A DNA stretch of 64,000 nt from Bdellovibrionales bacterium (GCA_965203275.1 OZ241865.1:960001-1024000); one strand, 5' to 3'; counted from the stretch's first letter, positions 4,080 through 58,386 are shown. Made by a program: numbers and translations. The notes: generated by a model from the letters alone, not told the origin.

Positions 4080-5223
4080 ATGGATCATTTAAAAAATTTG
4101 AGTCATTTATCTACGCAATTTCAAGATATTCAGAAGAGAGTTGAAAATCTTCGGAGGTGTCTTTGACTTACAACAAAAACAAAAACGTATTTCAGAAATA
4201 ACTCAAATGTTAGAAAATCCTAAAACTTGGCAGAATCCTTCTGCAATGCAAGACCTCAATAGAGAAAAATCTTTACTTGAAAAACCTATTCAAGAGTGGC
4301 AACAGCTCCAACCTCTTATAGAAAATACAGAAACTCTTTTAGAGATGATTCGTGAAGTTTCTATAGATACATCTCAAGCTAATCAAAAAGAGATCAATGA
4401 ACTATTTAAGGATTTGCATTTAGAGCTTCAAGCTTTGGAATCTTTGTTACAAAAATTAGATTTAAAAACTATATTAGGAGAGGACATAGATCGAAAGAAT
4501 AGTTATTTAGTCATCCATGCAGGAGCTGGTGGCACAGACGCTTGTGATTGGGTAAGTATATTGTTGCGTATGTATATAAAATGGGCTGATGCACAAGGTT
4601 ATAAAATAACTTATCAAGAAATGACCATGGGCGAAGAAGCTGGTATTAAATCAGTGACAGTGTTTATTCAAGGAGATTATGCGTATGGTTATCTTAAATG
4701 TGAAAAAGGGGTTCATCGGCTTGTGCGTATTTCTCCTTTTGATTCAAATGCTAGGCGACACACATCTTTTGCAGCTGTAGACGTTTACCCTGAAATAGAT
4801 GAAACGATCCATGTAGAGATCAAGCAAGAGGATTTACGAGTAGACACATACAAAGCTAGTGGTGCTGGAGGACAGCATGTGAATAAAACAGATTCTGCTG
4901 TACGCATCACTCATTGTCCAACAGGTGTAGTGGTTCAATGTCAAAGTGAACGTTCACAGCATTCTAATAGGGATCGAGCTATGAAAATGCTTAAGTCTGT
5001 TTTATATGATAAAGAACGTGCTAAAAGAAAAGCAGTAAAGGCACTAGAAAATGCAGAGAAAATGGCTAATGAGTGGGGGAGCCAAATTCGTTCTTATGTC
5101 ATGCATCCTTATCAAATGGTCAAAGATCATCGAACAAATTTTGAAGTAGGTGATGTCAATAGTGTACTTGATGGAAATATCACAGATTTTATCAATGCTT
5201 TTTTAAGAAGGTTGGCTCACTAA
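4080..5223 (+). CDS. prfB: Peptide chain release factor 2, programmed +1 frameshift
   Basis: ATG 4080 reads MDHLKN...LRRCL into CTT-TGA-C at 4161-4167; the +1 frame carries the SPF and GGQ motifs. Confidence 0.97.
4153..4167 (+). promoter_or_regulatory. prfB +1 ribosomal frameshift site
   Basis: GGAGGT internal Shine-Dalgarno then GT CTT TGA C, the canonical RF2 autoregulatory arrangement. Confidence 0.95.
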
Positions 5224-5815
5224 AAGTAAACTGACCTCTGGTCACTTTTGGGTTGCCAGCCGAAGGCTATTCGCCTTCTTAAATGCTGGCAACCTCAAAA
5301 GTCCGTTTACTTTTAGTAGGGAGTTAGTTGTTTCACTCAAAATGAGCCACACCTCTGGTGTGTTTTTGGGCATTGCTCTGACAGCTTACGCTGTCTAAAA
5401 AGAGCAATGCCGCAAAAAACTGCTCATTTTGAGTAGGGAGGATCTCCTCATTTTTTAACATAATGTTAGGGAAACAAGATGTTTATTTCATTTTGATATT
5501 TTGCCTTTGACAAAATAGGCAACACCTAAAAAATCCATTCATTTCAAGTAAGAAAGGATATCCTTGCCACTTAACACCATGTTAAGGAAACAAGATGTTT
5601 AGCCCGACGGCTCTCGCCGTCGATCAAAGGCTAACTGCCTAGAAAATCCATTTATTTTGAGTAGAGGAGGATCCTCTCGTCTCTTTACACGATGTTAGGG
5701 AAACAAGAGTTCTTTCTGATGCCTGTTTGCCGGATCCCAGATCCCGGATCCCAGATCCCAGATCCCGGAAAGAGAATCCTCTCATATTTTTATACCATGT
5801 TAAGGAAACAAGATT
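5217..5815 (+). repeat. Family A structured repeat cluster: one near-complete, one complete and three 5'-truncated copies, plus a GATCCCR heptamer array
   Basis: Unit CAC-P1-P4(CCTCTGG)-TTTTGG-P2-P3-P2'-CAAAA-P1'-AG..GGAT..CCTC..TTAACA..TGTTA(A/G)GGAAA at 5217 and 5330; partials at about 5500, 5598 and 5770; heptamers 5731-5768. Confidence 0.9.
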
Positions 5816-5821
5816 TCCTTT

Positions 5822-6037
5822 TTTTTGTTTTTTTATTTTTTTAGATTCTGCATAACTCTCAAACAAAAAATAATTAGGTGGAGGATGGGGCAGTGGGAGC
5901 CTGGAGATCTTCCGCAAATTGAGCTTGCTCTTTAAAAGCAAGCTCAATTGAGGACTTCGGAAGGCTCACACTGCCCTATCCTCAAGTAAAAACAAAATAG
6001 AAAAGCAGAATCGAAGGGTGGCGGGTGGGGTTAGGGG
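5822..6037 (+). repeat. Family B ~215-bp long-hairpin element
   Basis: Nested inverted repeats GATTCTGC/GCAGAATC, GAGGATGGGGCAGTG/CACTGCCCTATCCTC, CTTCCG/CGGAAG, AATTGAGCTTGCT/AGCAAGCTCAATT; near-identical inverted copy at 58014-58231. Confidence 0.9.
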
Positions 6038-6219
6038 TTTGTTTCACTAAAAGTGAACTGACCTCTGTTTCCCTCAAAGTGAAAGCTGTCTGATGGATAA
6101 AATGCCTAATCTATAAAAAATACCGACCCTACCTCGATCATTGTTTAATTTTTCTTCTGTTTTGCCGATAAAAAATAAAAATGTTTCTATAAAAATAAAT
6201 CTAAAGTCTAGGAAACTCA

Positions 6220-9219: not shown

Positions 9220-10310
9220 TTTTCACTCAAAATGCATCATGCCTCTGTTTCCCTAAAATTGAACTAGCCTCTGGCTACTTTTGGGCAGTTAGCCCGACGA
9301 CTGTCGTCGTCGATCAAAGGCTAACTGCCTCAAAAGCTTGTTCAATTTTAGGAAGAAGGATGTCCTCATTTCTTAACACCATGTTAAGGAAAAAGATTTC
9401 CTTCTGATGTTTGTCTGACAGCTATCGCTGTCTAAAAAGAGCAATGCCTCAAAAATCCGCTCATTTTGAGTAGGGCGGATCTCCTTGCTTCTGACACCAT
9501 GTTAGGGAAACAAGATATGCTTCTATTTCACTCAAAATGCATCATGCCTCTGGCTACTTTTGGGCAGTTAGCCCGACGACTGTCGTCGTCGATCAAAGGC
9601 TAACTGCCTCAAAAGCTTGTTCAATTTTAGGAAGAAGGATGTCCTCATTTCTTAACACCATGTTAAGGAAAAAGATTTCCTTCTGATGTTTGTCTGACAG
9701 CTATCGCTGTCTAAAAAGAGCAATGCCTCAAAAATCCGCTCATTTTGAGTAGGGCGGATCTCCTTGCTTCTGACACCATGTTAGGGAAACAAGATATGCT
9801 TCTATTTCACTCAAAATGCATCATGCCTCTGGCTACTTTTGGGCAGTTAGCCCGACGACTGTCGTCGTCGATCAAAGGCTAACTGCCTCAAAAGCTTGTT
9901 CAATTTTAGGAAGAAGGATGTCCTCATTTCTTAACACCATGTTAAGGAAAAAGATTTCCTTCTGATGTTTGTCTGACAGCTATCGCTGTCTAAAAAGAGC
10001 AATGTCGTTCGTTCACTAAAAGTGGTCTAGCCTCTGGCTACTTTCTGGCAATGACCGCGTTTGTCTCACTAAAAATAAACCAGCCTCTGGCTGTTTTTGG
10101 ACAATCAGCCCGACGGCTCTCGCCGTCGATAAAAGGCTGATTGCCTCAAAAATCCGTTTATTTTTAGTAGGAAGAATCCTCTTGTCTCTTTACACGATGT
10201 TAAGGAAACAAGATGTTTACTTCACGTTGGCAAAATGGTCATTGCCTCAAAAATCCGCTCATTTTGAGTAGGGGAGGATATCCTCGTCTCTTGACCGCAT
10301 GTTAAGGAAA
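9220..10310 (+). repeat. Family A cluster including a 279-bp tandem repeat (~2.7 copies)
   Basis: CTGGCTACTTTTGGGCAGTTAGCCCGACGAC at 9271, 9550 and 9829; further copies at about 10012, 10065 and 10225. Confidence 0.92.
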
Positions 10311-10348
10311 ATGTGTCCATGTTGGCTTGCAGTATTGGAATGTTTAAC

Positions 10349-11899: not shown

Positions 11900-12520
11900 C
11901 TATAAGTTTGTGTCACGGACAACATCATTGCCATTAACTATAGTATCGGCAAGGAGTACAGCATTGCCAAAAACTTGAGCATAGCCATAGACCTGAGCAT
12001 TATAAGTAACTATAGCATTGCCCCAGACTCTAGCACTGCCAAAAACCTGAGCATTGACAAAGATGATAGCACTGCCAAAGACCATAGCATAGCCATAGAC
12101 CTGAGCCTTGCCAAAGACCTCAGCATCGCCAAAGACTTCAGCATTGTTATAAACCCTAGCACGGCCAAAGACCCCAGCATCGCCAAAGACTTCAGCATGG
12201 CCATAGACCCTAGCATAGTCAGAGACTATAGCATTGCCAGAAACCCTAGCATAACCATAGACCTTAGCATAACGAGAGACCTTAGCATTGTCAGAAACCT
12301 CAGCATGGCCAAAGACTTCAGCATAATCGCAAACAGTAACATTTGGCCCTACATAAGCTGTATCCGCTACATAAGCTGTATTTGCTACAAACCCACCACC
12401 ATTAGCATGGTAACGGCCTTCAATGCCTTCGCCACAAGGTGTGTCTGCTAAAGCAAATACACTTAACGACATACTCAATAAACATGTTGTGATCATCATA
12501 TTTGCATTTATAAAATTCAT
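11900..12520 (-). CDS. Secreted hexapeptide-repeat (left-handed beta-helix) protein
   Basis: More than 20 (V)[YFS]G[NDHY]A.V hexads after HANGGGFVA; ATG 12520 after AAAAGGAG; signal-like N-terminus. Confidence 0.85.
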   Translation of the reverse strand: MNFINANMMITTCLLSMSLSVFALADTPCGEGIEGRYHANGGGFVANTAYVADTAYVGPNVTVCDYAEVFGHAEVSDNAKVSRYAKVYGYARVSGNAIVSDYARVYGHAEVFGDAGVFGRARVYNNAEVFGDAEVFGKAQVYGYAMVFGSAIIFVNAQVFGSARVWGNAIVTYNAQVYGYAQVFGNAVLLADTIVNGNDVVRDTNL

Positions 12521-12574
12521 AAGTTCTCCTTTTTGTTCATGATTTAGAATTAGAAGCTTACACCTAATGAAAAG

Positions 12575-12740
12575 ATATCTTGTTTTCTTAATATTGTAAA
12601 GAAACAAGAGGATCCATTTTCCATGATCTGGGATCTGAGATCTGGGATCCGGCATCCCAGCAACAAGAAGAAAAGAGCTTTTTCCTTAACATTTCACTCA
12701 AAATAAATCATGCCAGAGGCATGATGCATTTTGAGTGAAA
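12575..12740 (-). repeat. Family A fragments, heptamer array and a minimal P1-P4-P1' hairpin
   Basis: GATCTGG repeats 12625-12660; TTTCACTCAAAATAAATCATGCC-AGA-GGCATGATGCATTTTGAGTGAAA at 12692-12740. Confidence 0.8.
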
Positions 12741-12838: not shown

Positions 12839-15859
<3,021 letters not shown>

Positions 15860-16210: not shown

Positions 16211-16760
16211 CTCTTCCCTAAAAGCAGACTAACTAATTTAAAGAAGGATGACTCTCTTGCCCTTTTACAAAAGGAAACAAGTAGCCTTTCCCTTAACCTG
16301 TAACAGCTTTTTTCTTTAACAAAATAAGCAACACCTCATTTTGTTACCTCAAAAATTTATGCATTTTGAGTAATGAGGATATTCTTATCTTTTAAACCCT
16401 GTTACAGAAAATGACTTCCTATATCTGCCTTTTATTATAACATCATTTTCTATCAGTTGTGCCTAATAACTCAATAGCTATTTTTTATAATAATACTTCT
16501 TAAATTTTGTCTTTCCCTCAAAATGACCTAACCTCTTGCTATTAGAAAATATGCCAGAGATATGGTGCATTTTAAAGAAAATAAACTTCGCTCTTTCAAA
16601 CCTAAATAGCTAGCTATAATTTTGCCTGTGCAAAAAGGAGACACCTTAATATGAAAGAATTTCAAAATAAGGTGTATTGACCACAAGTCCTTTGTTTCAG
16701 CAAATAAACAATAGGAGGTAATACTTAAACTAAAACAAAGGCTTTTTAAAAGCTCCTTAG

Positions 16761-18908: not shown

Positions 18909-18938
18909 AGCTTTAAGACTTCTAATGTAATGTGAAAA

Positions 18939-19694: not shown

Positions 19695-20151
19695 GGAACT
19701 TTTTCCTTAACATGGTATTTATCCGGGATCCGGGATCCGGCAATCAGGCAGACAGGCAAGGATAAGGCGAACTGCTTGTTTCCTTAACATTGTGTAAAAA
19801 AACGAAGAGATCCTTTCTACTAAAAGTGGTCAGGCTTTTGAGGTGATGACCATTTTATCGACGGCGTGAGCCGTCGTGGTCATCACCCAAAAGTGACCAG
19901 AGGTCAGTTTACTTTTAGTGCAAATCAAATGAGGCAATGACCATTTTGTCAAAGGCGAAAAAAGTGAAATAAATAGCTTTTTCCTTAACATCGTGTTAAA
20001 AGAGGAAATGATCCTCCTTACTAAAAGTAAACGGATTTTTGAGGCAATCAGCCTTTGATCGACGGCGTGAGCCGTCGGGCTGATTGCCCAAAAACAGCCA
20101 GAGGCTGGTTTACTTTTAGTGAAACAGAGGTCAGACCACTTTTAGTGAAAA
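19695..20151 (-). repeat. Family A cluster (two full copies, partials, heptamers)
   Basis: Full copies at about 19775-19920 and 19978-20125, P3 loops CGACGGC-GTGA-GCCGTCG. Confidence 0.9.
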
Positions 20152-23599: not shown

Positions 23600-23634
23600 G
23601 CTTTATCTTATTTAGAAGAAAGGGGAGGTTAAAC

Positions 23635-36327: not shown

Positions 36328-36870
36328 GTTCACTCAAAATGAGCCACACCTCTGGTGTGTTTTTGGGCATTGCTCTGACAGCTATCGCTGTCTAAAAAGA
36401 GCAATGCCGCAAAAAACTGCTCATTTTGAGTAGGGAGGATCTCCTCGTCTCTTAACCACATGTTAAGGAAACAGAGTTTCATTTGTAAACCCGCTTGCTC
36501 CTGAGATAATAAAAGAAATTTTCCCTAACATGGCGTAAAGGAATAAAAGGATCCTTCTCTACTCAAAATGAACAAGCTTTTGAGGATAATAAAAGAAATT
36601 TTCCCTAACATGGCGTAAAGGAATAAAAGGATCCTTCTCTACTCAAAATGAACAAGCTTTTGAGGTAGCCAGCTTTTTACGACGGCGTGAGCCGTCGGGC
36701 TGGCTACCCAAAAGTGGCCAGAGGCCAGTTCATTTTGAGTGAAATGTTAAGGAAACAGAGTTTTATTCGCAAACTGCTTGCTCCTGAGGTAATAAAAGAA
36801 ATTTTCCTTAACATGGTGTAAAAGAATAAAAGGATCCTCTCTACTCAAAATGCATAGATTTTTGAGGCTA
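36328..36870. repeat. Family A cluster in both orientations, with an 80-bp tandem duplication
   Basis: Plus copy 36330-36472, minus copy 36598-36744; ATAATAAAAGAAATTTTCCCTAAC at 36506 and 36586. Confidence 0.9.
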
Positions 36871-36964
36871 AAAACCTACTTTCATAAAAATCCTTTACTT
36901 TTAATTCAAAAGGTTTATAATAATACTAAAGGAATATTTACAATAATATGAAAGGTAGGTTAAA

Positions 36965-37402: not shown

Positions 37403-38052
37403 GTTGTTTCACTAAATTCACTAAAAGTGGTCTTTTTCACTAAAAGTGGTCTGACCTCTGTCTCACTAAAAGTAAACCAACCTCTGGTTGCTTTTGGACA
37501 TTGCTCTGACAGCTCACGCTGTCTAAAAAGAGCAATGTCTCAAAAGTCCGTTTACTTTTAGTAGGGAAGGATCTCCTCGTTTTTTAACAACATGTTAAGG
37601 GTTTGTTTCACTCAAAATGCATCATGCCTCTGTTTCCCTAAAATTGAACTAGCCTCTGGCTACTTTTGGGCAGTTAGCCCGACGACTGTCGTCGTCGATC
37701 AAAGGCTAACTCCCTCAAAAGCTTGTTCAATTTTAGGAAGAAGGATCTCCTCGTCTCTTGACCACATGTTAAGGAAAATATCCTTTTAATACCAGTTAGC
37801 CCAACGGCTTATCGCCGTTGATCAAAGGCTAACTGCCTAGAAAATCCATTTATTTTGAGTAGGGAGGATCCTTTTTTTTTCTTAATACCATGTTAAGGAA
37901 AAAGTTCTTTTTAAACCCGCCAAGGGCTCAGGAGGAAATTTTTTAGATGCAAAAATTCATTACGATTAATCTTCTAGAACCTGACTGCCGGGTTGCCGGT
38001 TGCCGGATCCCGGATCCCAGATCCCGGATAAACACAATGTTAAGGAAAAAGA
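37403..38052 (+). repeat. Family A cluster with stuttered starts and heptamers
   Basis: Full copies 37462-37600 and 37632-37778; partial 37790-37900; heptamers 38003-38029. Confidence 0.9.
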
Positions 38053-42548: not shown

Positions 42549-45134
42549 CTATACTGAACCATACTCAGGACCAGTGTCTCCTTCTCCTCCGTCTATGTTT
42601 GAGTCTGGTGGGTTGGGGCTTGCTCCTCCTCCTCCGTCACCACCACCGGGTCTTGGCCGTGCTGATCTTGTATTTGATGGCTGTGAGTCTGCTGGAGGAT
42701 TTTTCTTTTTTCTACACACTCCTGACCTTTCACCTCCATTGATCCCATCACACCGCCATTGATAATAATGATCTGTATCTTCTTCAGCTGCAGCATTTTG
42801 TAAACCAGAGGAACATCCACTCTCCGTGCTATTATCACACTTTCCATTCTCAGAAACTGTATTAGTTGATTTTATTTGGTGACAGGCGTCTTCTTGCCTA
42901 CAACCACAGCTAGGAATATACTCAAATGGAATATTACGGCAGGTCCAGCGATAGAAGTTGTTATTCTCGCCTGGATGTGGGCTATATGTTCCAGCCTTAC
43001 ATTTAAGATTGTGAGTGTTAGCACACCTTCCACATGTAATGTTATCGACCTTTGATAAGTCTATGCCATTTGAGTCTGAACAGTCACCAGAACCTGAGTC
43101 ATCTGGGCTGACTGCTGTGTCTGGGCCACCTCCATCTGGGACTGAACCACCTCCACCAGAACCACCTGAACTTGGACTTGCACCTGGTCTTGGATATAGC
43201 CATCGACCGATGCTACCCTTTTGACAGGTTTCATCTGTGACATCAATCCATGCAGGCGTTGGAGTATTTCTTCCTGCTCCTCTTAAAAAATCAATAATTA
43301 TAACATCTGCACTATTATTAGGACTTCCTTCACCACGATAATAAGCTAAAGCATCTGCGGAAATGCGATTACAATCTCCTCTGACACAGTTATAGCCAAA
43401 CCTCTCGTCTATGCGATGTAATTCATTCACAACTAAATCCAAAAATCTATAATCCTCCGTATACTCTGAACCATCCCACACAGCCTTATAAGCTGCATCA
43501 TTTGCAGTGGCAAGCTTTTGTACCACGTGTTGCATGGTCCTAGCTGGTTTGTTTTTTTTAGATGGAGAATTACAAGTAGAGTAACCACCACCTGTGTCGC
43601 CACTTAGGCGACCATCAGTATAGGTACCTAATGTAGCTCCGCCTGTGCCATCTGCGGCTGGCAACCTATAAAACTGTACATTAGTTCTTTTACGTACATT
43701 TCTCACATTATTTCTTGCAAGCCCTGAGACCATAAACCCCACGATTTCTCCAGGTTTTGGTATCCATCGATCTAAAGGAGATTTTTTAATATGCCGTCCC
43801 CATGCATTATTATAGACTTTACTTAAAGGTTTTGTGTTCTCATGACCAAACTTACAATATTGATTTGGTCGAAGCCATTCGTATGTTGCCGCATAATAGC
43901 GACCACTGATTTTAACAAACACCCAGGGATTACCCACTAGTTGAGTACCATTACCTAAAGGCTCCCCTGCAGGCCACTGACCTTTTTCTGTATAGTCAGT
44001 ACAAATTTGTCCACCGCTTTTCACCTGAACAGAAGTTATGTGGGAGCTTTCAGTCCATCCACTCACATCGTAGTGAAGCCAGGTGACTTTTGAAAAATCA
44101 AAATCAGAAAAATCACTATCAGGAACAACCGCTCCACCTGTCCTTGGATATTTCCAATAACCATTTGCTGGGTTAGCTCTATCTTTGTGTCTTTCGTGGC
44201 TTGTGTCGTCCCACTGAACTCGACAACTTGAAGATATAATATCCACAAAACGCAGATTGCTACTTCTATTTCCATTGCCACTTCCACAATAATAAGCAAT
44301 GGCATCCTTTGATGCATGATTAAGGTTATGTTGTGTCCTGTGGTAATAACCCCATCTGGTATCTGTTTTTCTCAGCTCTACAAGGACCTTCTCTAAAAAA
44401 TCATAATTACCAGGCTTAGTACAATTATTAGAATTTCTAAGTAAGCTATGATGCTCTCTTGCAACTTTTGATACAATAGAGAGTCTATCTGGAACAGAGC
44501 ATTGTCCAAGAGGTGTATAACCTGGTGTTGGTGTTCCACTTGTAGTGGGAGGGGGAGATGTACAAGTAGGGGGAGGAGGAGGATATGAGTCATCTCTAAG
44601 GTAAATCCAAGTCCCTTGCATATTAGGTTGTGGATTCCAATCCAATTGAGGAGGATTGTTGCCACAATTGTTAAGAATTTCTATAACATCTATCTCACTG
44701 CTTCCCTGACGTTCTGCAGGATTTCTGCCTTTATAGTAAGCAATATGCACTTTTGAGAGGTCATCTTTGTTCTCAATACAATTTTGACCCATTGGGCAGT
44801 AATGTCCGTAACGCCAAGACCTGTGACAATCACTATTCTTCTTTCTTAATCTATATAATGACTCATCTATAAAATTATAATCATCACAAGCATTCTTACC
44901 AGGTGTTGGATTTTCAGGATCTTCAGGATCTATTGGAGGTGGAATGTCATCTGGTACTCGTGGTGGTGGATAGGGTAGATTTTCATTATTTCCATTATTG
45001 TCATTATTTTGTTGGGTGATAGGAGGCAGTTTAATAGGGTTATCTACTTGTCCACAATTGTTAAATTGCAAACTCAATAGAGTTATGAATGCCATGATAA
45101 CAATAAAAGAAAATTTCTTATTTATTATCTTCAT
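42549..45134 (-). CDS. Modular Cys-rich secreted lipoprotein, paralog 2 (A-D-B-C-Cys tail)
   Basis: Near-identical signal peptide to paralog 1, with an extra D domain. Confidence 0.85.
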   Translation of the reverse strand: MKIINKKFSFIVIMAFITLLSLQFNNCGQVDNPIKLPPITQQNNDNNGNNENLPYPPPRVPDDIPPPIDPEDPENPTPGKNACDDYNFIDESLYRLRKKNSDCHRSWRYGHYCPMGQNCIENKDDLSKVHIAYYKGRNPAERQGSSEIDVIEILNNCGNNPPQLDWNPQPNMQGTWIYLRDDSYPPPPPTCTSPPPTTSGTPTPGYTPLGQCSVPDRLSIVSKVAREHHSLLRNSNNCTKPGNYDFLEKVLVELRKTDTRWGYYHRTQHNLNHASKDAIAYYCGSGNGNRSSNLRFVDIISSSCRVQWDDTSHERHKDRANPANGYWKYPRTGGAVVPDSDFSDFDFSKVTWLHYDVSGWTESSHITSVQVKSGGQICTDYTEKGQWPAGEPLGNGTQLVGNPWVFVKISGRYYAATYEWLRPNQYCKFGHENTKPLSKVYNNAWGRHIKKSPLDRWIPKPGEIVGFMVSGLARNNVRNVRKRTNVQFYRLPAADGTGGATLGTYTDGRLSGDTGGGYSTCNSPSKKNKPARTMQHVVQKLATANDAAYKAVWDGSEYTEDYRFLDLVVNELHRIDERFGYNCVRGDCNRISADALAYYRGEGSPNNSADVIIIDFLRGAGRNTPTPAWIDVTDETCQKGSIGRWLYPRPGASPSSGGSGGGGSVPDGGGPDTAVSPDDSGSGDCSDSNGIDLSKVDNITCGRCANTHNLKCKAGTYSPHPGENNNFYRWTCRNIPFEYIPSCGCRQEDACHQIKSTNTVSENGKCDNSTESGCSSGLQNAAAEEDTDHYYQWRCDGINGGERSGVCRKKKNPPADSQPSNTRSARPRPGGGDGGGGASPNPPDSNIDGGEGDTGPEYGSV

Positions 45135-45361
45135 CTTATTTATTTTTATCTTTATTATTAAGTTTTAAGATTCTCTCTAAATGATTTATCGGCAGATATT
45201 ATTTTAAACTTGAGTTTCATTGGTGAATATCTTTTCAAAGTGAATGGATAGAACCTAAAAACAGTAAAGAAATAAAGCCATCTAGTAGCAGGCTAACTTA
45301 TCTATTTGTGTGCTGTTATGTAGATTGAAAAAAGATAGAAAGTTTATAAGCGAAGGTAAGG

Positions 45362-47740
45362 CTAAGGAATGATCTCAATACATTCGCCTCCCAGACATTG
45401 CATCATTGCACTATCTGTGCAATCTAAGTCTGTTTGACACTCATCTTCAGTATCATCATCATCTGAATCTGGAGTTGAGCCTATACCCGGACCTGGACTT
45501 GCTGGTACGTTTGTTTTTTCCCCTCTGACACAACACACTCCTAACTTTGGAGGAATAATTTCTTCTATCCCTCTATTTGTCACTTTTGTGAATCTATAAA
45601 CATCATAAAATATAAAGTCTTTCCAATCTGTGTGACCATGGAGATCTAACTCCTCACAAGATGTGTGTTTACCAGAAAAAATATGAGGATCATCTACTGT
45701 TCCTTCTTTTTGGTCTGCTCCATAGCTCCCCCATCCTGCAAAGTAAGCAGCCATTCCACAGCTAGGATAACAGTTCGTCACATTTTGATAAGTTCTCAGC
45801 GAATAATGAGGTTGAGGACATATTTTTTTAGAAGATCTTCTGCAACAGGTTTGAGCATCATGGACTTTGCTTGTGATTTGTTGGATGTTATAATTTTGAG
45901 TGTCTTGGCATTCTGCATCTTTAGCAGTTTCCAGACCAGGTAAATTATTTTTTGGTAAAAAGTAAGCACAAGGAGGCAGACAAGCATTATCTACAGTTTT
46001 AAAGTTTTCTTTGAGCTGCTCTGCTGTACATGCGTTTTTTGTATTTGTTTTAGGTGCTTCACAACGTTTTTCGCCTGTACTACGAGGTTTATTACGACAT
46101 GTCCAAAGGTATTTATCTGCTGTATCCTCAGGATGATTGTGAAAGTCTCCTTTTGCACACGTATTGGGTGTTGGACCACATTGTCCTATCACTGTGCTAC
46201 CACCTGTATCACCGGTACTGCCTGTGCCACCACCTTTGCTAGAGTAACTACCTAACATAGCCCCACCTGTGCCATTTGTTTTTGGCAATCTATAAAACTG
46301 CACATTACTTCTCTTACGTACATTATTTCTCACTCTATGCCTTGCAAGCCCTGAAATCATAAAGCCTACGACTTCTCCAGCTTTTGGTACCCATCGATTT
46401 AAAGGATGTTTGTTGATATGCCCTCTCCATGCACTACTATAGACTTTACTTAAAGGCTTTGTGTTCTCATGACCAAATTTACATATTTGTCCTGGTCGAA
46501 GCCATTCGTATGTTGCACCATAATAGCGACCTTTGATTTTAACGAATACCCAGGGATTGCCATCTAGCTGACCGCTACCTAAGGGGTTCCCTGTAGGCCA
46601 TCGACCTCTCTCTGTATCATTAATACAAATTTGTCCACCGCTTTTCACTTGAACAGAAGTTATGCGAGAAGTTTCAGCCCATCCACTCACATTTTGGTGA
46701 AGCCAAGTCACTTTTGAAAAATTAAAATCAGAAAAGGCATGTTCTTTGTTTGAGTTTCCTCTACTTGAACCTGTCCTTGGATATTTCCATCGACCGATAG
46801 CATTACGTTCACATGTTTCATTTGTGACATCAGTCCATGCAGGTAGCGGAGTATTAGCTCCTGCTCCTCTTAAAAAATCAATAATTTGAACGTCTGCACT
46901 ATTATTAGGACTTCCTTCACCACGAAAATAGGCCACAGCATCTGCGGAAATGCGATTACAATTTCCTCTGACACAGTTATAGCCAAACCTGTCGTCTATT
47001 TCTCTAAACCTGGCCACAACTAAATCCAAAAATCTATGATCATTTGTATACCTTGAACCATCCCATACAGCCCTATAAGCTGCTGGATGGGCAGTAGCTA
47101 ATTTTTGTACCTCACGTTGTAAGTTAGGTGGCCGTCTTGTAGATCGAGAATTACAAGTAGATACAGCACTGGAAGCTGTGTCGCTGTCTGAATTTGTGTT
47201 TGAGCTTGTGTCTGAGTTTGTGTTTGAGTTTGTCCTTGGATACTTCCAATAACCCTTTGCTGGATTAGCCCTGCCTTCGTGTCCTGTGTGACCCCAATAA
47301 ACTTGACATCTTGAAGATATGATGTCTATAAAACGCAGATCGCTACTTCTATTTCCGTTGCCACTTCCACAATAGTAAGCAATGGCATCATAAGATGCAT
47401 AGTTAAGGTTATGTTGTGTCCTGTGGTAATAGCCCCATTTGCTATCTGTTTTTCTCAGCTCTACAAGGACTTTCTCTAAAAAATCATAGTTACCAGAATC
47501 AGAACAATTATTAGAATTTCTGAGTAAGTTGGGATGATCTCTTGCGACTTCTTGTACAGTAGAGAGTCTATTGGGAGCAGAGCATTGTCCAAGAGATGTG
47601 CTACGATCTGATGTTCTATCGGTTTCGGTCGCGGAGATTTCTCTTGAGGCTAGACTACCAGCATCATTCTCTTTTGCACAGCTAATCATTTGAAAAGAAA
47701 TAACAAATATAATAATAAATTTTAAATAATATTTTTTCAT
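45362..47740 (-). CDS. Modular Cys-rich secreted lipoprotein, paralog 3 (D-C-B-Cys tail)
   Basis: MKKYYLKF...MISC lipobox; the same domains in a different order. Confidence 0.85.
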   Translation of the reverse strand: MKKYYLKFIIIFVISFQMISCAKENDAGSLASREISATETDRTSDRSTSLGQCSAPNRLSTVQEVARDHPNLLRNSNNCSDSGNYDFLEKVLVELRKTDSKWGYYHRTQHNLNYASYDAIAYYCGSGNGNRSSDLRFIDIISSRCQVYWGHTGHEGRANPAKGYWKYPRTNSNTNSDTSSNTNSDSDTASSAVSTCNSRSTRRPPNLQREVQKLATAHPAAYRAVWDGSRYTNDHRFLDLVVARFREIDDRFGYNCVRGNCNRISADAVAYFRGEGSPNNSADVQIIDFLRGAGANTPLPAWTDVTNETCERNAIGRWKYPRTGSSRGNSNKEHAFSDFNFSKVTWLHQNVSGWAETSRITSVQVKSGGQICINDTERGRWPTGNPLGSGQLDGNPWVFVKIKGRYYGATYEWLRPGQICKFGHENTKPLSKVYSSAWRGHINKHPLNRWVPKAGEVVGFMISGLARHRVRNNVRKRSNVQFYRLPKTNGTGGAMLGSYSSKGGGTGSTGDTGGSTVIGQCGPTPNTCAKGDFHNHPEDTADKYLWTCRNKPRSTGEKRCEAPKTNTKNACTAEQLKENFKTVDNACLPPCAYFLPKNNLPGLETAKDAECQDTQNYNIQQITSKVHDAQTCCRRSSKKICPQPHYSLRTYQNVTNCYPSCGMAAYFAGWGSYGADQKEGTVDDPHIFSGKHTSCEELDLHGHTDWKDFIFYDVYRFTKVTNRGIEEIIPPKLGVCCVRGEKTNVPASPGPGIGSTPDSDDDDTEDECQTDLDCTDSAMMQCLGGECIEIIP

Positions 47741-47876
47741 AAAAATCTCTTTTGTTTTGTTATTGTTGTTTTGTTTTATTGCTTTGTTATTATGCACTTA
47801 TATATTTATCGACAAAAATGACTTTCACTTAAATATACTTTTCTTTTTCTTTTTCAAATTTAGCTAAAAGTCATAG

Positions 47877-48154
47877 TTTTCCCTAAAATTGAACTAGCCT
47901 CTGGCTACTTTTGGGCAGTTAGCCCGACGACTTTCGTCGTCGATCAAAGGCTAACTGCCAGAAAACATGCCAGAGGCATGATTTATTTTGAGTGAAACAA
48001 ACATCTTGTTTCCTTAACATCGTGTAAAGAGACGAGAGGATCCTCCTCTACTCAAAATGAGCGGATTTTTGAGGCATTGCTCTTTTTAGACAGCGATAGC
48101 TGTCAGAGCAATGCCCAAAAACACACCAGAGGTGTGGCTCATTTTGAGTGAAAC
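47877..48154. repeat. Family A cluster (plus partial, minus full copy)
   Basis: Minus copy 48005-48154 with P3 GACAGC-GATA-GCTGTC and P4 CACACC-AGA-GGTGTG. Confidence 0.9.
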
Positions 48155-50819: not shown

Positions 50820-51630
50820 TTGTTTCACTAAAAGTAAACTAACCTCTGGCTACTTTTGGGTTGCCAGCCGAAGGCTATTCGCCTTCTCAAATGCTGGCAA
50901 CCTCAAAAGTCCGTTTACTTTTAGTAGGAAGGATCTCATCGTCTCTTAACCACATGTTAAGGAGTTGTTTCACTAAAAGTGAACTGACCTCTGGTCACTT
51001 TTGGGCGATGACCGCAAAGGCTTTCGCCTTTGACAAAATGGTCATCGCCTCAAAAGCCTGTTCACTTTGAGTAAGGAGGATCCTCTCGTCTCTTAACTAC
51101 ATGTTAAGGAGTTGTTTCACTAAAAGTGAACTGACCTCTGGTCACTTTTGGGCGATGACCGCAAAGGCTTTCGCCTTTGACAAAATGGTCATCGCCTCAA
51201 AAGCCTGTTCACTTTGAGTAAGGAGGATCCTCTCGTCTCTTAACTACATGTTAAGGAGTTGTTTCACTAAAAGTGAACTGACCTCTGGTCACTTTTGGGC
51301 GATGACCGCAAAGGCTTTCGCCTTTGACAAAATGGTCATCGCCTCAAAAGCCTGTTCACTTTGAGTAAGGAGGATCCTCTCGTCTCTTAACTACATGTTA
51401 AGGAGTTGTTTCACTAAAAGTGAACTGACCTCTGGTCACTTTTGGGCGATGACCGCAAAGGCTTTCGCCTTTGACAAAATGGTCATCGCCTCAAAAGCCT
51501 GTTCACTTTGAGTAAGGAGGATCCTCTCGTCTCTTAACTACATGTTAAGGAAACAAGATATTCACTCCCGGGATCTGGGATCCGGCAATCTGGCATCCCG
51601 GGATCTGATGCCGGGTTGCCGGATCCCAGA
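50820..51630 (+). repeat. Family A tandem array: one variant plus four identical 147-bp copies, then heptamers
   Basis: CACTAAAAG starts at 50826, 50971, 51118, 51265 and 51412. Confidence 0.95.
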
Positions 51631-51637: not shown

Positions 51638-53860
51638 TTATAGTGGATTGTTTTTATAATATTGGAGAAGCCATTCCTGGACAATAGTAGGAGGAATTCC
51701 CAATCGCTCTGCTACCTTTTCATAACCTTCCCTACGAGCTAATCGCACTGCATTCTCTCTTTCTTTTAAAGTGTAATTCCGCTTGCTTTGAGATTGCTGA
51801 ACCCATTCCTCTAAAGTGGCAACTGGAATCTCCAATTGCTTTGACGCCATTGCATAACCTTCCTTACGAACTAATTGCACTGCTTTATCCTTTTGTTCTA
51901 GGGTGTAGTGTCTTTTAAGAATTTCATTTTTCTTTTTTTTGTCTTCTTGAACCTGGTATCCCTCAGCAACAAGAAGAATCCCTAATTGCTCCCTTACCTT
52001 TTTACTGCCCACCTTTGTCCTTTTATCGCCCACCCTACGAGCTAATCGCACTGCATTCTCTCTTTCTTTTAAAGTGTAATTCCGCTTGCTTTGAGATTGC
52101 TGAACCCATCCCTCTACAATAGCAAGTAAAGTGGCAATAGGAATCTCCAATTGCTTTGACGCCATTGCATAACCTTCCTTACGAACTAATTGCACTGCTT
52201 TATCCTTTTGTTCTGGGGTGTAGTGTCTTTTAAGAATTTCATTTTTCTTTTTTTTGTCTTCTTGAACCCGGTATCCCTCAGCAACAAGAAGAATCCCTAA
52301 TTGCTCCATTACCTTTTTACTGCCCACCTTTGTCCTTTTACCGCCCACTCTACGAGCTAATCGCACTGCATTCTCTCTTTCTTTTAAAGTGTAATTCCGC
52401 TTGCTTTGAGATTGCTGAATCCATCCCTCTACAATAGCAAGTAAAGTGGCCATAGGAATCTCCAATTGCTTTGACGCCATTGCATAACCTTCCTTACGAA
52501 CTAATTGCACTGCTTTATCCTTTTGTTCTAGGGTGTAGTGTCTTTTAATAATTTCATTTTTCTTTTTTCTGTCTTCTTGAACCCGGTATCCCTCAGCAAC
52601 AAGAAGAATCCCTAATTGCTCCATTACCTTTTTACTGTTCACCCTTAGCTTTTTACCGCCCACTCCGCCCACTCTACGAGCTAATCGCACTGCATTCTCT
52701 CTTTCCTTTAAAGTGTAATTCCGCTTGCTTTGAGATTGCTGAACCCATCCCTCTACAATAGCAAGTAAAGTGGCCATAGGAATCTCCAATTGCTTTGATG
52801 CCATTGCATAACCTTTCTTAAGAACTAATCGCACTACATCTTCTTTTTCTCTTAAAGTGTAATTCTGCCTGCTTTGAAATTGCTGAACCCATTCCTCTAC
52901 ACTAGCAACAGGAATCCCCAATCGCCCTGCTACCTTTTTATTGCCTAACATATAAGCTAATTGCACTACTTCGTCTCTTTGTTCTAGAGTGTATTTTTTC
53001 TGGCTTCGCACAGGTTTGTTCTTCTGTTTTTTATCTTCATAAACCCATGGATATAAAATGCCAGGATTTATATTTAATATCTCTACTACCTTTTTAACAT
53101 TACCTATCTGACGAACTAATTGCACTGCTCTGTTTTTTGTTTCTTGAGAGTAATAAGGTTTTTTTCTTTTTGATATGCTTAATAATGTTTGTCTTGCTTG
53201 CTTAATTTTATGAGAAAAATCTTCTACAATCTCTATATGAGGTTTATTTAAAAGCTCTGATACAAAATGGCTTGTATCCATCCTTAAAGCCTCTAAAAAG
53301 AAATGATCTATAGATATCGGATATGTTGCATTTGCTTTCTCAACATTTTTTTTCATAATAATAACTTTTTCTAATAAGGCATTTGCACTTTCATCATAAT
53401 CAAGGGCAGGTATGAAAGAGATATCTTCTAAATGAAGAATAAGTAAATCATTATCTCTTAACTCAAATAAAATAGGATTATGGACCTGAACATTTAACTG
53501 ACTTAAGAGGAATTCTTGAACTTCTCTTAAAATATTAAATTCTTTCAAAGTAATAACTAAAGAATTAAAATTAAGATGGCCGTCTATGTCTGTAAAGTGC
53601 AAGCGATTGATCTCTTTGTTTGAAGATTCAACTCTTGTCAAAATTGCCATAATAATATGATTTGCACTCACTGTTTGAGACTCAGAAGCATAAGCTATTA
53701 ATGAAGCTATAGATAACATATCTTGAGAGCTAGGAGTAAGCTTTCTTAATCTGGTGTCATCATGTTGATTTTGTGGCATAAGGCTTTCAGCACAAGCCCA
53801 TAGAGAATCACTGGCAATAAGCAAAACAATAAATAAAATAAAAATATATTTTTTCGGCAT
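51638..53860 (-). CDS. Secreted protein with Clp-N-like domain and ~10 tandem HTH_Tnp_1-like repeats
   Basis: Signal peptide; LTPSSQ..L..A...A.......HIIMAIL; repeats Y[ST]..[EQ][KR]..AV.L....G....A..L.IP.......WV; DNA repeats of 303-324 bp. Confidence 0.8.
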   Translation of the reverse strand: MPKKYIFILFIVLLIASDSLWACAESLMPQNQHDDTRLRKLTPSSQDMLSIASLIAYASESQTVSANHIIMAILTRVESSNKEINRLHFTDIDGHLNFNSLVITLKEFNILREVQEFLLSQLNVQVHNPILFELRDNDLLILHLEDISFIPALDYDESANALLEKVIIMKKNVEKANATYPISIDHFFLEALRMDTSHFVSELLNKPHIEIVEDFSHKIKQARQTLLSISKRKKPYYSQETKNRAVQLVRQIGNVKKVVEILNINPGILYPWVYEDKKQKNKPVRSQKKYTLEQRDEVVQLAYMLGNKKVAGRLGIPVASVEEWVQQFQSRQNYTLREKEDVVRLVLKKGYAMASKQLEIPMATLLAIVEGWVQQSQSKRNYTLKERENAVRLARRVGGVGGKKLRVNSKKVMEQLGILLVAEGYRVQEDRKKKNEIIKRHYTLEQKDKAVQLVRKEGYAMASKQLEIPMATLLAIVEGWIQQSQSKRNYTLKERENAVRLARRVGGKRTKVGSKKVMEQLGILLVAEGYRVQEDKKKKNEILKRHYTPEQKDKAVQLVRKEGYAMASKQLEIPIATLLAIVEGWVQQSQSKRNYTLKERENAVRLARRVGDKRTKVGSKKVREQLGILLVAEGYQVQEDKKKKNEILKRHYTLEQKDKAVQLVRKEGYAMASKQLEIPVATLEEWVQQSQSKRNYTLKERENAVRLARREGYEKVAERLGIPPTIVQEWLLQYYKNNPL

Positions 53861-55465: not shown

Positions 55466-55476
55466 ACAAACGAATG

Positions 55477-57279
55477 CTATCTTTGTGGTTCTGGTACTAC
55501 TGGAATAGGTAGAATAGGTCTTGTAATTGGAGGAGATTCTCCATCTTCATTAGATTCAGTGGCAACGGTAGCATTAGCAACAGAGTCTTCTTCATTATTT
55601 GTAGTAGTAGTGACAGAGTCATCGACAACAGGGGCAACATCAACAGGCTCAGTTTCAATTTCAGGTTCAGTGGTAACAATAGTTTCAGCGAAAGGGCTAC
55701 TTATTGTTTCAGTGGTATCAACAGGTTCAGGGCCAACAGAAGCAACAGGTTCAGGGTCAACAGGAGCAACAGGTTCAACAAATTCTAGCGGTAGACCTCT
55801 TTCTGGTTCTGATAATTGCTGAAATGGTTGTTCTACAGTTGTTGTATTTTCTTGTATTTCGAGTTGAGATTGAACTGTAGATTGAAGAAAAGATAGAACA
55901 GAATTGGTAGCATTCAATAAAATTTCTACAGCCCCTTTTGAAACATTGACTACAAACCTTGCAGGTGCAGCTCCATCTATATCAGGATTTTCTTCTAAGT
56001 ATTTATAGCTAGATACTCCCATAATAACCGATACCGTTATCATAAAGGTTGTTCTTACTGGTTTTGGTGTTACCGTATACCATAAAGACTTAAGCCCTCT
56101 TGATAATGCAAGAAAAGCACGTTTCAGCATACCTTTTTGGTTACTAGGGGATGTTGGAATATTGTCAACCGCACTTTTTAGTTGCATTGTTGGCTCATCT
56201 AGTGGTGACTTTGGGGTTTCTGACCTTACAAAAACATTAGCAACAGGGTCTACAGGGTCTACTTTTCTTGTAAAATTAGAGGTATCAGGAGCCGGGGGAG
56301 TAGCAGGAGGAGTAGCGGGAGCTGGAGGGGTAACAGGCTTTAACCCTTTTAAGCCCCTTATTTCCGCTTGAGGAACTTGAGCAGCAATAGCAGGGGGGGT
56401 AGCAGGAGCTGGAGGGGTAACAGGCTTTAACCCTTTTAAGCCCCTTATTTCCGCTTGAGGAACTTGAGCAGCAATAGCAGGGGGGGTATCAAGAGCTGGA
56501 GGAGTAGCAGGTTTGGAGGCTGTAGCAGGAGGAGTATCAGGAGCCGGGGGAGTAGCAGGTTTGGAGGCTGTAGCAGGGGGAGTATCAGGAGCCGGGGGAG
56601 TAGCAGGAGGGGTAGCAGGTTTAGAGGGAGTAGCAGGATCTGGGCTGATGCCAGAATCGATCCTCGGGGCTTGTACTGTAATGCCAGAATCGATCCTCGG
56701 GGCTTGTACTGTAGCAGGTTTGGAGGCTACAGCAGGGGGAGTATCAGGAGCCGGAGGAGTAGCAGATTTGCCTGGTCGTGGTTCATTGGCATCATCAGCC
56801 AGTTTTCCAGCGGCTACTCCAGTAGCTGTATGAGCTCCAGCTATCTGATCTGTATTTGTATGACTTCTGGTAGTATCTTCTTTTGATATTGAAGCTCCCC
56901 TTAAAGAATTGATAAAGAAAGGTAACGTGGAAACAGCATTTTCATATTGAAAAACATCAGCTACATCTTGAAATAGAGTTATTATATTGGCTTCTTCCTC
57001 TGATAGCTCTATGGAGTATGTTCCATCTTCTGTGATATAAGTGCCATCTTCTGCCATAGCTCCTTCATGATCTTCTGCTACTGCTAGTAATTTAGCTCTT
57101 AAGTTTTCTAAAATCATTTGATCGATGCTCATTAAATGTTCAAGTACTTCTTGTTCAGCGATAGCTTGATCTAGATGAGAAAAGCTTTGTGATTGTGCAT
57201 TAAGTGTCATACTCAATATTAAAGTTAAAAGAAAACTCACTAAACCACTTATTAAAAATTTTATCTGATTTTGTTTCAT
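55477..57279 (-). CDS. Secreted Pro/Ala-rich repeat protein
   Basis: Signal peptide; repeats PATPPAPDTPPATASK, TVQAPRIDSGI and AQVPQAEIRGLKGLKPVTPP; TM segment; acidic tail. Confidence 0.82.
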   Translation of the reverse strand: MKQNQIKFLISGLVSFLLTLILSMTLNAQSQSFSHLDQAIAEQEVLEHLMSIDQMILENLRAKLLAVAEDHEGAMAEDGTYITEDGTYSIELSEEEANIITLFQDVADVFQYENAVSTLPFFINSLRGASISKEDTTRSHTNTDQIAGAHTATGVAAGKLADDANEPRPGKSATPPAPDTPPAVASKPATVQAPRIDSGITVQAPRIDSGISPDPATPSKPATPPATPPAPDTPPATASKPATPPAPDTPPATASKPATPPALDTPPAIAAQVPQAEIRGLKGLKPVTPPAPATPPAIAAQVPQAEIRGLKGLKPVTPPAPATPPATPPAPDTSNFTRKVDPVDPVANVFVRSETPKSPLDEPTMQLKSAVDNIPTSPSNQKGMLKRAFLALSRGLKSLWYTVTPKPVRTTFMITVSVIMGVSSYKYLEENPDIDGAAPARFVVNVSKGAVEILLNATNSVLSFLQSTVQSQLEIQENTTTVEQPFQQLSEPERGLPLEFVEPVAPVDPEPVASVGPEPVDTTETISSPFAETIVTTEPEIETEPVDVAPVVDDSVTTTTNNEEDSVANATVATESNEDGESPPITRPILPIPVVPEPQR

Positions 57280-57557
57280 AATAATTACCTCTTTGGTTGA
57301 CTTAAGTTACTTAAATTTTATTTATTAAAATAAAATTATTTATAAAATTATTTCTGTTCCGTTACCCTCTTTCTTTTACCCTCTTTGGACCTCTTTAAAA
57401 CTTTAAATTTTAAACAATCCAGCAATTTTGATTTTAACTGTATATATAACAAAAAAATATTATTTTCAAGGTAAACTTTCTAAGTACTTTTAAAAACATC
57501 ATAAATAAATATGATTTCAATAATTTATAAATTGACGCTATGCATTATATTGTTTCA

Positions 57558-58386
57558 GGTCAGTTTACTTTTAGTGAAACAGAAGGATTATCCCTAACCC
57601 CACCCGCCACCCTTCGATTCTGCTTTTTTATCTTATTTATATATGAGTGGAATGCGGGGTCAGGCTTCCGAAGTCCTCAATTTTTTTCACTCAAAATGAA
57701 CTGGCCTCAGGCAATATTGGATCTAGAATTTGTTGGTTGTATGGAATTAGTAAAACAAGCTGATAAATTAGGAGCTTATTTATACAAGTTGTGTAAAAAC
57801 ACTTAAAGTCAAATTTGATCTTTTCCGGGATCCGGGATCCGGGAACCCGGCATCAGAAGGAAATCTTTTTCCTTAACATGAAGTAAAAAAATGAAGGGAT
57901 CCTCATTACTAAAAGTGGTCAGGCTTTCTAGGTTGCCAGCATTTAAGAAGGCGAAAGCCTTCGGCTGGCAACCAGAAAGTGACCAGAGGTCAGACCACTT
58001 TTAGTGAACAAACTCCCTAACCCCACCCGCCACCCTTCGATTCTGCTTTTTCATTTTGTTTTTACTTGAGGATAGGGCAGTGTGAGCCTTCCGAAGTCCT
58101 CAATTGAGCTTGCTTTTAAAGAGCAAGCTCAATTTGCGGAAGATCTTCAGGCTCTCACTGCCCCATCCTCCATCTAATTACTTCTTTTTTGAAGGTTACG
58201 CAGAATCTAAAAAAAATAAAAAAACAAAAAGAAAGGAACTTTTTCCTTAACATGTAGTCAAAAAACGAAGGTTTCCTTCCTACTAAAAGTAAACGGACTT
58301 TTGAGGTAGCCAGCCTTTGATCGACGGCGGTAGCCGTCGGGCTGGCTACCCAAAAGCAACCAGAGGTTGGTTTACTTTTAGTGAAA
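57558..58386 (-). repeat. Composite of family A, family B and heptamer modules
   Basis: Partial B 57591-57680; heptamers 57826-57850; A 57866-58008; B 58014-58231; A 58240-58386. Confidence 0.9.

Follow-up and report, generated by a model that had tools for sequence, protein, structure and literature searches.

The stretch of DNA analyzed here, hereafter the window, comprises 64,000 nucleotides (nt), positions 960001-1024000 of the single 2,567,810-bp contig (about 35% G+C) of a Bdellovibrionales bacterium (GCA_965203275.1 OZ241865.1; genome G000). It carries many copies of a non-coding repeat unit of 147-165 nt, which we refer to as family A. An nhmmer profile made from eight window copies and applied at E<=1e-3 gave 32 matches in the window, and it recovered all 18 copies that an initial annotation of this sequence had named at 15 places (one of them fourfold), with starts within 5 nt. 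An independent repeat search recovered the same families, among them a tandem array with a 147-nt period at 50822-51557 and a composite of 279 nt at 9255-10091. In this study, we examine the fold of family A, its junctions, its abundance and its distribution, and we regard it, with modest confidence, as a mobile DNA repeat, non-coding and non-autonomous, that depends on its structure and is of the general kind represented by REP, BIME and REPIN elements and by hairpin-ended miniature transposons.

A full unit has two parts, a Y-shaped body of 104 nt and, loosely linked to its 3' side, a tail. In the body, helix P1 closes a three-way junction, from which arise a small hairpin with a TCT loop (P4) and a long arm made of the J1/J2 extension, P2 and P3; the tail comprises the weak hairpin P5, the conserved word ..ATGTTAAGGAAA and a small terminal hairpin. 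On the plus strand, the first copy of the window (5215..5324) is a Y-shaped body without tail (profile positions 2-111), followed by a full copy at 5330..5478 and two 3' partial copies (profile 58-147 and 42-147) at 5501..5706. An orphan 26-nt head, made up of TTTC, P1, the P4 5' arm and CCTCT, lies at 6042..6067 and is joined to the start of another head (repeat-search family D14). A second orphan 26-nt head (9220..9246) is joined at CCTCT/G, where the slash marks the joint, to a full copy at 9247..9395 that forms the first unit of the 279-nt composite (repeat-search family D4). This composite, a full copy plus a linker and a partial copy, is present three times over, up to about 10057: a partial copy (profile 40-148) at 9407..9514 after the linker AAAAAGATTTCCTTCTGATGTTTG, a full-length chimeric copy at 9526..9674, another partial copy (profile 40-148) at 9686..9793, a chimeric copy the same as the first at 9805..9953, and a 5' fragment (profile 3-48) at 10012..10057. 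In the chimera at 9526..9674, the head belongs to one allele (P1 ..ATGCAT, P4 CATGCC) and the body, attached at the P4 loop, to another (GGCTAC), so that P1 and P4 are mismatched. Next to the composite lie a full copy at 10063..10212 and a 3' fragment (profile 66-146) at 10231..10312, and a weak plus-strand 3' fragment (profile 76-145, 22.8 bits) occupies 16343..16411 in the 16S-23S spacer, antisense to the ribosomal RNA (rRNA) operon.

Farther along, two full minus-strand copies lie at 19776..19921 and 19978..20125, and a full plus-strand copy at 36328..36474 is followed on the minus strand by a 3' fragment (36519..36586, profile 79-145), a full copy (36599..36744) and another 3' fragment (36802..36872, profile 75-145). 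Two 26-nt orphan heads on the plus strand (37434..37459 and 37606..37631, both family D14) are joined at CCTCT/G to copies at 37460..37600 (profile 1-141) and 37632..37779 (full), respectively, and a partial copy (profile 41-146) follows at 37794..37903. A degenerate plus-strand copy at 47878..48029 is overlapped by an inverted fragment (47882-47998, minus strand), and a full minus-strand copy lies at 48005..48154. Downstream of scpA, the plus strand carries the tandem array of five copies with a 147-nt period (50822..51557). The last two copies, both full and on the minus strand, are at 57865..58008, with its tail facing a heptamer array and a broken 23S-IVS-protein-family gene, and at 58239..58386. 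The orphan heads were found by the repeat search, the first composite unit and the tandem array by the repeat search and nhmmer, and the other copies by nhmmer, supplemented by sequence reading for the tail-less body, by sequence comparison for the first chimera and by Rfam for the spacer fragment. The copies starting at 5330, 10063, 19776, 19978, 36328, 36599, 37460, 37632, 47878, 48005 and 58239 were also aligned to a covariance model, and those at 36328 and 58239 were folded as single-stranded DNA (ssDNA).

Genome-wide, the profile matched 1333 times (652 plus, 681 minus), covering 158,414 nt or 6.2% of the 2.57-Mb genome. About half of the matches are truncated, nested or chimeric, and all fall into 418 clusters, 101 of which are single matches. 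By crude gene calls made for this analysis, 337 of 1450 intergenic gaps hold family A, which makes up about 22% of intergenic DNA. Only 2 of the 1333 matches lie inside open reading frames (ORFs) of at least 120 amino acids (aa), a high-copy extragenic placement like that of REP and REPIN elements, and a count kept low in part by the prior removal of repeat-derived ORFs; there were 267 such calls, and the 147-nt period is divisible by three. Between genes transcribed in the same direction, copies are oriented with transcription 344 times and against it 372 times. The family includes recent copies: for 97 of the 695 full copies, an identical partner lies more than 5 kb away, and for 183 there is a partner that is at least 98% identical. 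The median identity to the nearest copy is 96.6%. Among 13 public runs, no RNA run covers the region. Short-read contigs from four public runs, compared with window positions 18501-38500, end at the repeats, and none bridges a copy; in three of the four runs, contigs at least 85% alike pile up on the repeat-bearing bins, so the repeat is not peculiar to this assembly.

The initial annotation had described four stems that keep their pairing as the sequence changes. The compensatory change is borne out, and it involves five helices (P1, P4, J1/J2, P2 and P3) rather than four. Among 17 window copies aligned with MAFFT and RNAalifold, 23 of 39 consensus pairs were changed on both sides. A broader alignment brought together 65 matches (62 distinct) from the window, from the congener G001 and from contigs of the genome bin G004. 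It was fitted to a covariance model that included P1, P4, the J1/J2 extension, P2, P3 and P6, a fit that favors the structure; the MAFFT/RNAalifold alignment and folds of single copies agree with it. In these 65 matches, 95.7% of 2775 cells were paired, as compared to 81.7% in shuffles, and none of 500 shuffles reached the observed value. Double changes were seen in 31 of 45 pairs (414 cells), and the covariation score was 0.431 vs 0.172 in shuffles (0 of 500 reaching it) and at most 0.071 when partners were slid by 1-3 columns. Across helices 1-7, a handful of one-sided changes stand against more than 400 double changes. The word TTTTGG pairs with C(T)CAAAA in a helix that has a bulged T and covaries with the alternative allele TTTCTG/CTAGAAA. 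Three copies, folded as ssDNA on both strands, gave the same Y for all six strands, at -40 to -45 kcal/mol (z -8.5 to -12).

The two small hairpins that had also been proposed fared less well, P5 being weakly supported and P6 unsupported as a stem. P5 is a weak purine/pyrimidine hairpin around GATC, and 56% of 288 distinct segments fold below -1 kcal/mol vs 21% of shuffles. In P6 (TTAAC..GTTAA), only one of six pairs in the 65-match alignment is changed on both sides, and 24 of 62 rows fail to pair at one of the six; P6 is a conserved sequence and not a supported stem. The element usually extends past GGAAA into a further small hairpin, AAGGAAA-loop-TTTCCTT.

A regular-expression parse, which worked for 575 of 649 distinct full copies (490 of these with a single inner hairpin), allowed the stem alleles to be counted: 19 for P1 (8 common), 9 for P4 (7 common), 19 for P3 and 3 for J1. 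Adjusted mutual information was high within helices (P1a-P1b 0.70, across 86 nt; P4a-P4b 0.87; J1-J2 0.58; P2a-P2b 0.70; P3 0.98), and lower between modules (J1-P2a 0.27 and J2-P2b 0.25, which are adjacent, and P1a-P3 0.26). The tail (P5, P6 and end type) shared no more than 0.18 with the body. Allele linkage follows helices and not linear distance, and therefore the combinatorial mixing of stem alleles noticed in the initial annotation is real, and the pieces that mix are nested modules. It is most simply explained by exchange between conserved joints, followed by copying only of those recombinants whose arms pair.

Selection on a single-stranded fold rather than on sequence is likewise the simplest account of the covariation, as had been suggested at the outset for a structured mobile RNA or ssDNA element. 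Of these two forms, the structured ssDNA is the one that the data retain. Covariation as strong as this, together with the position of copies between genes, where they would often be co-transcribed, could also be expected of structured-RNA genes or modules (a small RNA, a ribozyme, or an mRNA-stabilizing or terminating element) in which selection acts on the RNA fold. The minus-strand P3 loops add to this case: they are G-N-N-A, the pattern of stable tetraloops, in 451 of the 490 parsed copies (T-N-N-C on the plus strand), as the initial annotation had noted, and this loop is the sole strand-specific feature of family A. G-N-N-A loops are, however, very stable in DNA as in RNA. Structured RNA normally tolerates G-U on its own strand; in P1, where 7832 of 8125 cells are Watson-Crick, G:T (69) and A:C (83) mismatches are equally rare, and one-sided changes are nearly absent throughout. 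Since the two mismatches are equally rare, both strands fold alike and orientation shows no preference relative to genes, DNA is favored over RNA, as it also is because copies are truncated, nested and clustered and correspond to no Rfam family. At the gathering threshold, Rfam matched only rRNAs and one transfer RNA in the whole window, in keeping with the first impression of an unfamiliar family, and at E<=1 the segment 9200-10330 gave a single chance-level match of 24 bits against a gathering score of 43. We consider the RNA explanation quite unlikely. A literature search, not aimed at every synonym, found no description of family A.

Copies are joined to each other in a site-specific way. 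The family A ends are TTTCAC.. on the left and ..GTTAAGGAAA on the right. Of 948 heads located by pattern, 738 run into the matching P4 3' arm and about 39 carry the 3' arm of another allele, while 140 end exactly after CCTCT and are joined there to G[TG]TTC[AC]CT, the start of another copy. This exact CCTCT/G joint thus recurs about 140 times with differing allele pairs. Of 189 fragments just upstream of full copies, 184 share the orientation of the copy; among 350 fragments downstream, 268 do so and 68 are placed tail-to-tail. The left flank before GTTTCAC reads T-Y-T (64%, 83% and 77%). The right end is not sharp: after ..ATGTTAAGG, a few recurrent continuations close the small hairpin AAGGAAA-loop-TTTCCTT and end in CT[TG]A[CT].., in CAAGAT.. 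before a heptamer array, or in [AG]GTT/GTTT plus the next unit in arrays.

Filled and empty versions of the same site were sought as copies whose family-A-free flanks adjoin each other elsewhere in the genome. The search gave 29 candidates, which were re-aligned; junctions were read by eye from the alignments, and some sites share one ancestral event. In five cases (20, 88, 139, 151 and 551), the alignment shows one clean gap of 148-166 nt, and the target is not duplicated. In case 151, TGTTTCAC...AAGGAAAAAGTTCTTCTATC is inserted between unrelated words, and in cases 88 and 139 the insert is exactly one unit, placed at a solo tail word, which is the outcome expected if a circular or multimeric unit had integrated. 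Several joints show the short homologies TAGGGAG and GTT. The sites at which target DNA is replaced include four family-B palindromes, as well as two sites in front of a 23S-IVS-protein gene. Family B is a 247-nt repeat that we observed at window positions 5821-6067 and 57984-58230; the two sequences are 91% complementary, and the repeat has a central hairpin (..CCGAAGTCCTCAA..GAGCAAGC..). In several genomic copies of family B, one arm is replaced by an inserted family A copy.

These junctions bear on the notion that family A is a miniature inverted-repeat element of a resident DDE insertion sequence (IS), IS256-like or IS4-like. An active DDE transposase is evidently present, as seven identical copies of an IS256-like (Mutator-family) element show (for example at C1:1028650-1029885), and family A ends in a short inverted match, TTGTTTC..GAAACAA. 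The ends of the IS256-like element (GAGCATGTCC..) are nevertheless unrelated to family A, and it makes 8-bp target duplications, whereas the clean filled and empty pairs of family A have none; two of its copies sit inside family A copies. The GAAACAA end is confined to about one copy in three, where it is the boundary with heptamer arrays, and the IS4 and resolvase genes lie away from family A copies. The tested features already contradict this origin, to which we give almost no credence.

The unit-length insertions at a solo tail word (cases 88 and 139) look like circle integration, and could therefore suit folded-strand recombination sites for a tyrosine recombinase, such as integron attC sites or Xer-dependent elements. 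As in attC, which measures 57-141 bp, structure is conserved while sequence is free, the site is defined by the fold of one strand, its size is similar and inverted core words stand at its base; the inverted pair CTTAAC..GTTAAG in the tail resembles the R''/R' boxes of the attC consensus. Family A differs in its branched fold, where attC is a single imperfect hairpin, in the occurrence of copies in both orientations genome-wide, and in the lack of an integron integrase and of cassette arrays. The only two tyrosine recombinase genes of the genome, one XerD/XerC-like (307 aa) and one split, score 55 and 54 bits with the integron-integrase model, as compared to a cut-off of 265. P6 does not covary, and a comparison of the tail with Xer/dif sites found no convincing dif with a consensus motif, the best candidate being unlike the tail. 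Such a recombination system is, in our view, very improbable.

Genes that lie beside family A copies were considered as the source of its mobility. The 23S-IVS-protein family (PF05635) has 15 genes (14 by family search), all 15 of which are within 300 nt of a copy, vs 30% of all genes; for 14 of them, a copy in the opposite orientation begins no more than about 100 nt downstream, with a heptamer array between where the sequence was read. A heptamer array also lies immediately upstream of 143 of the 303 solo tail words. PF05635 genes are present, however, in 20 of 41 related genomes, most of which are without family A, and the family was rejected as a mover on these grounds. The heptamer arrays share the word ATGTTAAGGAAA and a small terminal hairpin with family A, but they belong to a separate module that carries a gene and appears to use family A tails as landing sites. 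We take this cassette to be a second module, one that either has the tail word in common with family A or targets it. The hairpin-forming arrays themselves (GGATCCC/AGATCCC and complements) lie at window positions 5715-5783, 24384-24560, 25990-26065, 37981-38035, 51560-51630 and 57825-57860, and adjoin the tails of family A at ..GGAAACAAGAT or ..TTTCCTTCTGATGCC; across the genome, nine near-identical 23S-IVS-protein-family genes of 306 nt are flanked on both sides by such arrays. The broken member of this gene family at 57540-57806 has its 3' part joined to an orphan family A head and to a piece of another repeat.

Beside the five-copy array, at 51638-53860 on the minus strand, is a 740-aa ORF with a signal-peptide-like start and about ten tandem units of about 50 aa, which match transposase-type helix-turn-helix domains (HTH_Tnp_1, HTH_SB). 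It has one full-length paralogue at 55% identity and other, partial ones. It looks like a secreted repeat protein and was rejected as a transposase candidate. A PF07282 match that might have indicated TnpB belongs instead to a 1325-aa Cas12a3 homologue (G000:C1:238802-242779, outside the window; PDB 21we, E 1e-71), which has no direct-repeat array within about 2 kb.

Family A has a narrow distribution. In a BLAST search of 40 relatives, only G001, of the same genus, and the bin G004 matched; the covariance model gave at least 150 matches in G001 and 12 in G004, and none in G002 or G003. A sample of 150 more genomes from across the phylum gave no match. The copy-bearing G004 contigs C4 and C11 (loci L030 and L032) are 84-90% identical to G001 and about 70% identical to G003, the congener of G004, and thus look like mis-binned G001-like DNA; we extended this conclusion to the third contig, C1, and rejected G004 as a second genus with family A. 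A pattern scan over 185,579 species' genomes gave at least 22 loci, 14 of them on the chromosome of one Bdellovibrionales bacterium metagenome-assembled genome, and among the matches listed, eight singletons in other taxa or phyla all failed the covariance model at E<=1. Family A is accordingly confined to one genus among the approximately 190 genomes searched. Within this genus, copy occupancy is lineage-specific: the gap after scpA holds five units here, while in G001 it is 14 nt long and has no copy, and the rpsQ-rplN gap, empty here, holds four units in G001. A possible orthologous copy upstream of an M50 peptidase gene in G000 and G001 was dismissed, since the flanks do not align and the alleles differ.

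Hairpin repeats, REPs among them, are the commonest non-coding repeats in bacteria; the mover of REPs is known, RAYT (TnpA-REP, a Y1 HUH transposase), encoded by a single-copy gene that usually has REPs on its flanks. BIMEs are mosaic arrangements of modules. Correia, RUP, BOX, ERIC and RPE are intergenic repeats of 100-150 nt in tens to hundreds of copies, of which BOX is modular and some are predicted to fold; those miniature repeats of this group with known movers have inverted-repeat ends and target duplications. We know of none in this group with a conserved three-way junction and allele-swapping stems, nor of one that reaches 6% of a genome. Family A resembles REP, BIME and REPIN elements as high-copy extragenic palindromic DNA with compensatory hairpin changes and clustering, and its 68 inverted tail-to-tail pairs among 695 full copies recall REPINs. 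In PMC3116915, REPIN hairpins are described as undergoing compensatory change and as lying in tandem or ordered clusters. The claim of the initial annotation that covariation here exceeds that of REP, ERIC, BOX or RPE repeats therefore holds as a difference of degree (three-way junction, five helices, discrete alleles), given that compensatory change in REPINs had already been described. REP transposases are described in PMC8266576 as recognizing a folded ssDNA hairpin and cutting at a CT step beside it, and the same paper presents GTAG as the REP hallmark. The recurrent family A joint falls right after CCTCT (140 of 948 heads), which would be compatible with such a cut. GTAG is found 5' of P5 in 507 of 682 copies, an observation made post hoc, in which G and T are the last P1 pairs and half of the word lies inside the stem.

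The differences from REP elements are also clear. The body of family A is a 104-nt three-way junction with five covarying helices, whereas a REP is a single hairpin of 20-40 nt or a doublet; its unit is a single branched fold and not an inverted doublet that forms one long hairpin; its stem alleles are discrete and exchangeable; and its copies land inside the hairpin loop of family A itself. Neither RAYT nor any Y1 gene is present in this genome. Elements of the IS200/IS605 type are similar in lacking the usual terminal inverted repeats and target duplications, in having subterminal hairpins, and in having a conserved short word on the left flank only (here, T-Y-T before GTTTCAC); a single-strand mechanism would also fix the insertion orientation for each target, as in 184 of 189 family A cases. 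Unlike them, family A has a variable right end and has often lost target DNA, there is no TnpA here, and the ends of the G001 IS200, read directly, are unrelated. Family A works like REP, BIME and REPIN and like IS200-type elements but fails membership of each, because it has no cognate enzyme and a different unit.

As a mobile DNA repeat of this general kind, family A would be copied via an ssDNA form. We infer that a trans-acting, structure-reading nuclease or recombinase may cut and join at a pyrimidine-T/G step, which occurs both at the left end (..T/GTTTCAC) and in the P4 loop (CCTCT/GG), so that new copies would land preferentially in or beside older ones. The left junction would be made exactly, and the right junction would be resolved loosely, often via short homology with loss of 5-34 nt of target. 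Stems would covary because only copies with pairing arms get copied again, and alleles would be shuffled as whole hairpin modules by exchange between conserved joints. The single-stranded intermediate, the cut site and the dedicated enzyme are thus putative, and the candidate enzyme would be of none of the usual families.

Several observations weigh against this reading. The initial annotation had proposed that a TnpA/RAYT nuclease, an IS110 recombinase or a reverse transcriptase might be found next to a copy, and none is encoded in this genome: in a one-contig assembly of 90% estimated completeness, Y1_Tnp (PF01797) had 0 matches (the control was positive in 6 of 14 genomes), and a six-frame family search found neither RVT_1 nor the IS110 DEDD family, and no Relaxase, Rep_trans or TrwC in either this genome or G001. 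The only Y1 gene of G001 is an ordinary IS200 TnpA (NF033573, 140.9 bits) with hairpin ends of its own, unrelated to those of family A, and no family A copy lies in its 3.4-kb locus (none within 1.5 kb of the gene); RAYT was rejected as the mover. At many filled sites, the copy replaces 5-34 nt of target or starts with the last bases of the preceding unit (..TTAAGGAGTT/G). Of 90 nested cases, the downstream P1' could be read before any new head in 54, and the orphan head pairs with it in 17 of these, vs 6 expected by random pairing; simple nested insertion is thus enriched but a minority, many structures being further rearranged, and was discarded as the rule. Each of the four G001 units between rpsQ and rplN carries about 50 nt of the rpsQ 3' end, which looks like slippage or duplication and not transposition. 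The minus-strand G-N-N-A loops, finally, hint at activity of one strand, whereas the conserved left flank would indicate the other strand under an IS608-type model; cumulative GC skew is flat, so replichores are not definable.

An alternative is that no dedicated enzyme exists and that host DNA metabolism, acting on hairpin-forming DNA, has spread and diversified family A. Replication would stall, slip and switch templates at hairpins, loops would be cut by host nucleases, and breaks would be repaired via short homology from any of about 1300 ectopic copies; the perfect stems would be kept by copying or repair within the hairpin and not by selection for transposition. The absence of a linked transposase of any tested kind agrees with this, as do the G001 arrays with flanking gene sequence in every unit, the junctions with target loss and TAGGGAG or GTT homologies, and the break points at or near loops and joints. 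Clustering is strong, with 418 clusters and 337 occupied gaps vs about 870 expected from 1333 random events in 1450 gaps, and double changes with almost no one-sided intermediates are what templated correction would give. Set against these are the 418 separate loci occupied, 101 of them by single matches, the clean unit-length insertions into sequence that is unique or unrelated apart from them (cases 151 and 20), and the same CCTCT/G joint made about 140 times with differing allele pairs. We are aware of no case in which host functions alone have scattered a 150-nt unit over hundreds of loci, and we judge this explanation improbable, if less so than an RNA or DDE origin. A wider proposal, which we put forward tentatively, is that family A is moved either by an enzyme of a type so far not associated with hairpin repeats or by nothing beyond host replication and repair, the three-way junction serving as a platform for recognition and cutting (a nick at T/G in the P4 loop) and the swappable stems as compatibility modules. 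If true, family A would be a new class of self-homing structured DNA replicator and not a REP variant.

The window and the genome hold other features of note. In the window, an ORF at 11900-12655 (minus strand) has an 18-nt periodic repeat (YdcK beta-solenoid), and the 23S rRNA match at 12841-15857 (minus strand) spans 3017 nt vs a model of 2925 positions, indicating about 90 extra bases. A pair of neighboring DNA methyltransferase genes (N6_N4_Mtase) and, after them, a small PLD-like ORF lie at 26242-28941 on the plus strand. Three tandem paralogous genes (692-861 aa) without a Pfam match lie at 40083-47797 on the minus strand; they have internal 2.6-kb repeats in common and are part of a seven-member family. 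Paralogue families of the genome are very large: one single-linkage cluster comprises 103 ORFs, the longest member of which is an ankyrin-repeat protein, and there are 74 ORFs of about 170-190 aa without a Pfam match and 36 pilin-like (N_methyl) ORFs.

For practical purposes, family A breaks short-read assemblies and generates spurious ORFs. Its more than 600 distinct full copies also amount to a natural mutational scan of a DNA three-way junction, which shows the helices that must pair (P1, P4, J1/J2, P2 and P3) and the words that must stay fixed (TTTCAC, CCTCTGG, TTTTGG, CTCAAAA and ATGTTAAGGAAA). In this organism, an elaborate REP relative, recently copied and targeting its own hairpin loop, makes up 6% of a reduced genome that encodes no known single-strand transposase. 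Family A is therefore a place to look for a new DNA cutting and joining activity, or for enzyme-free spread.

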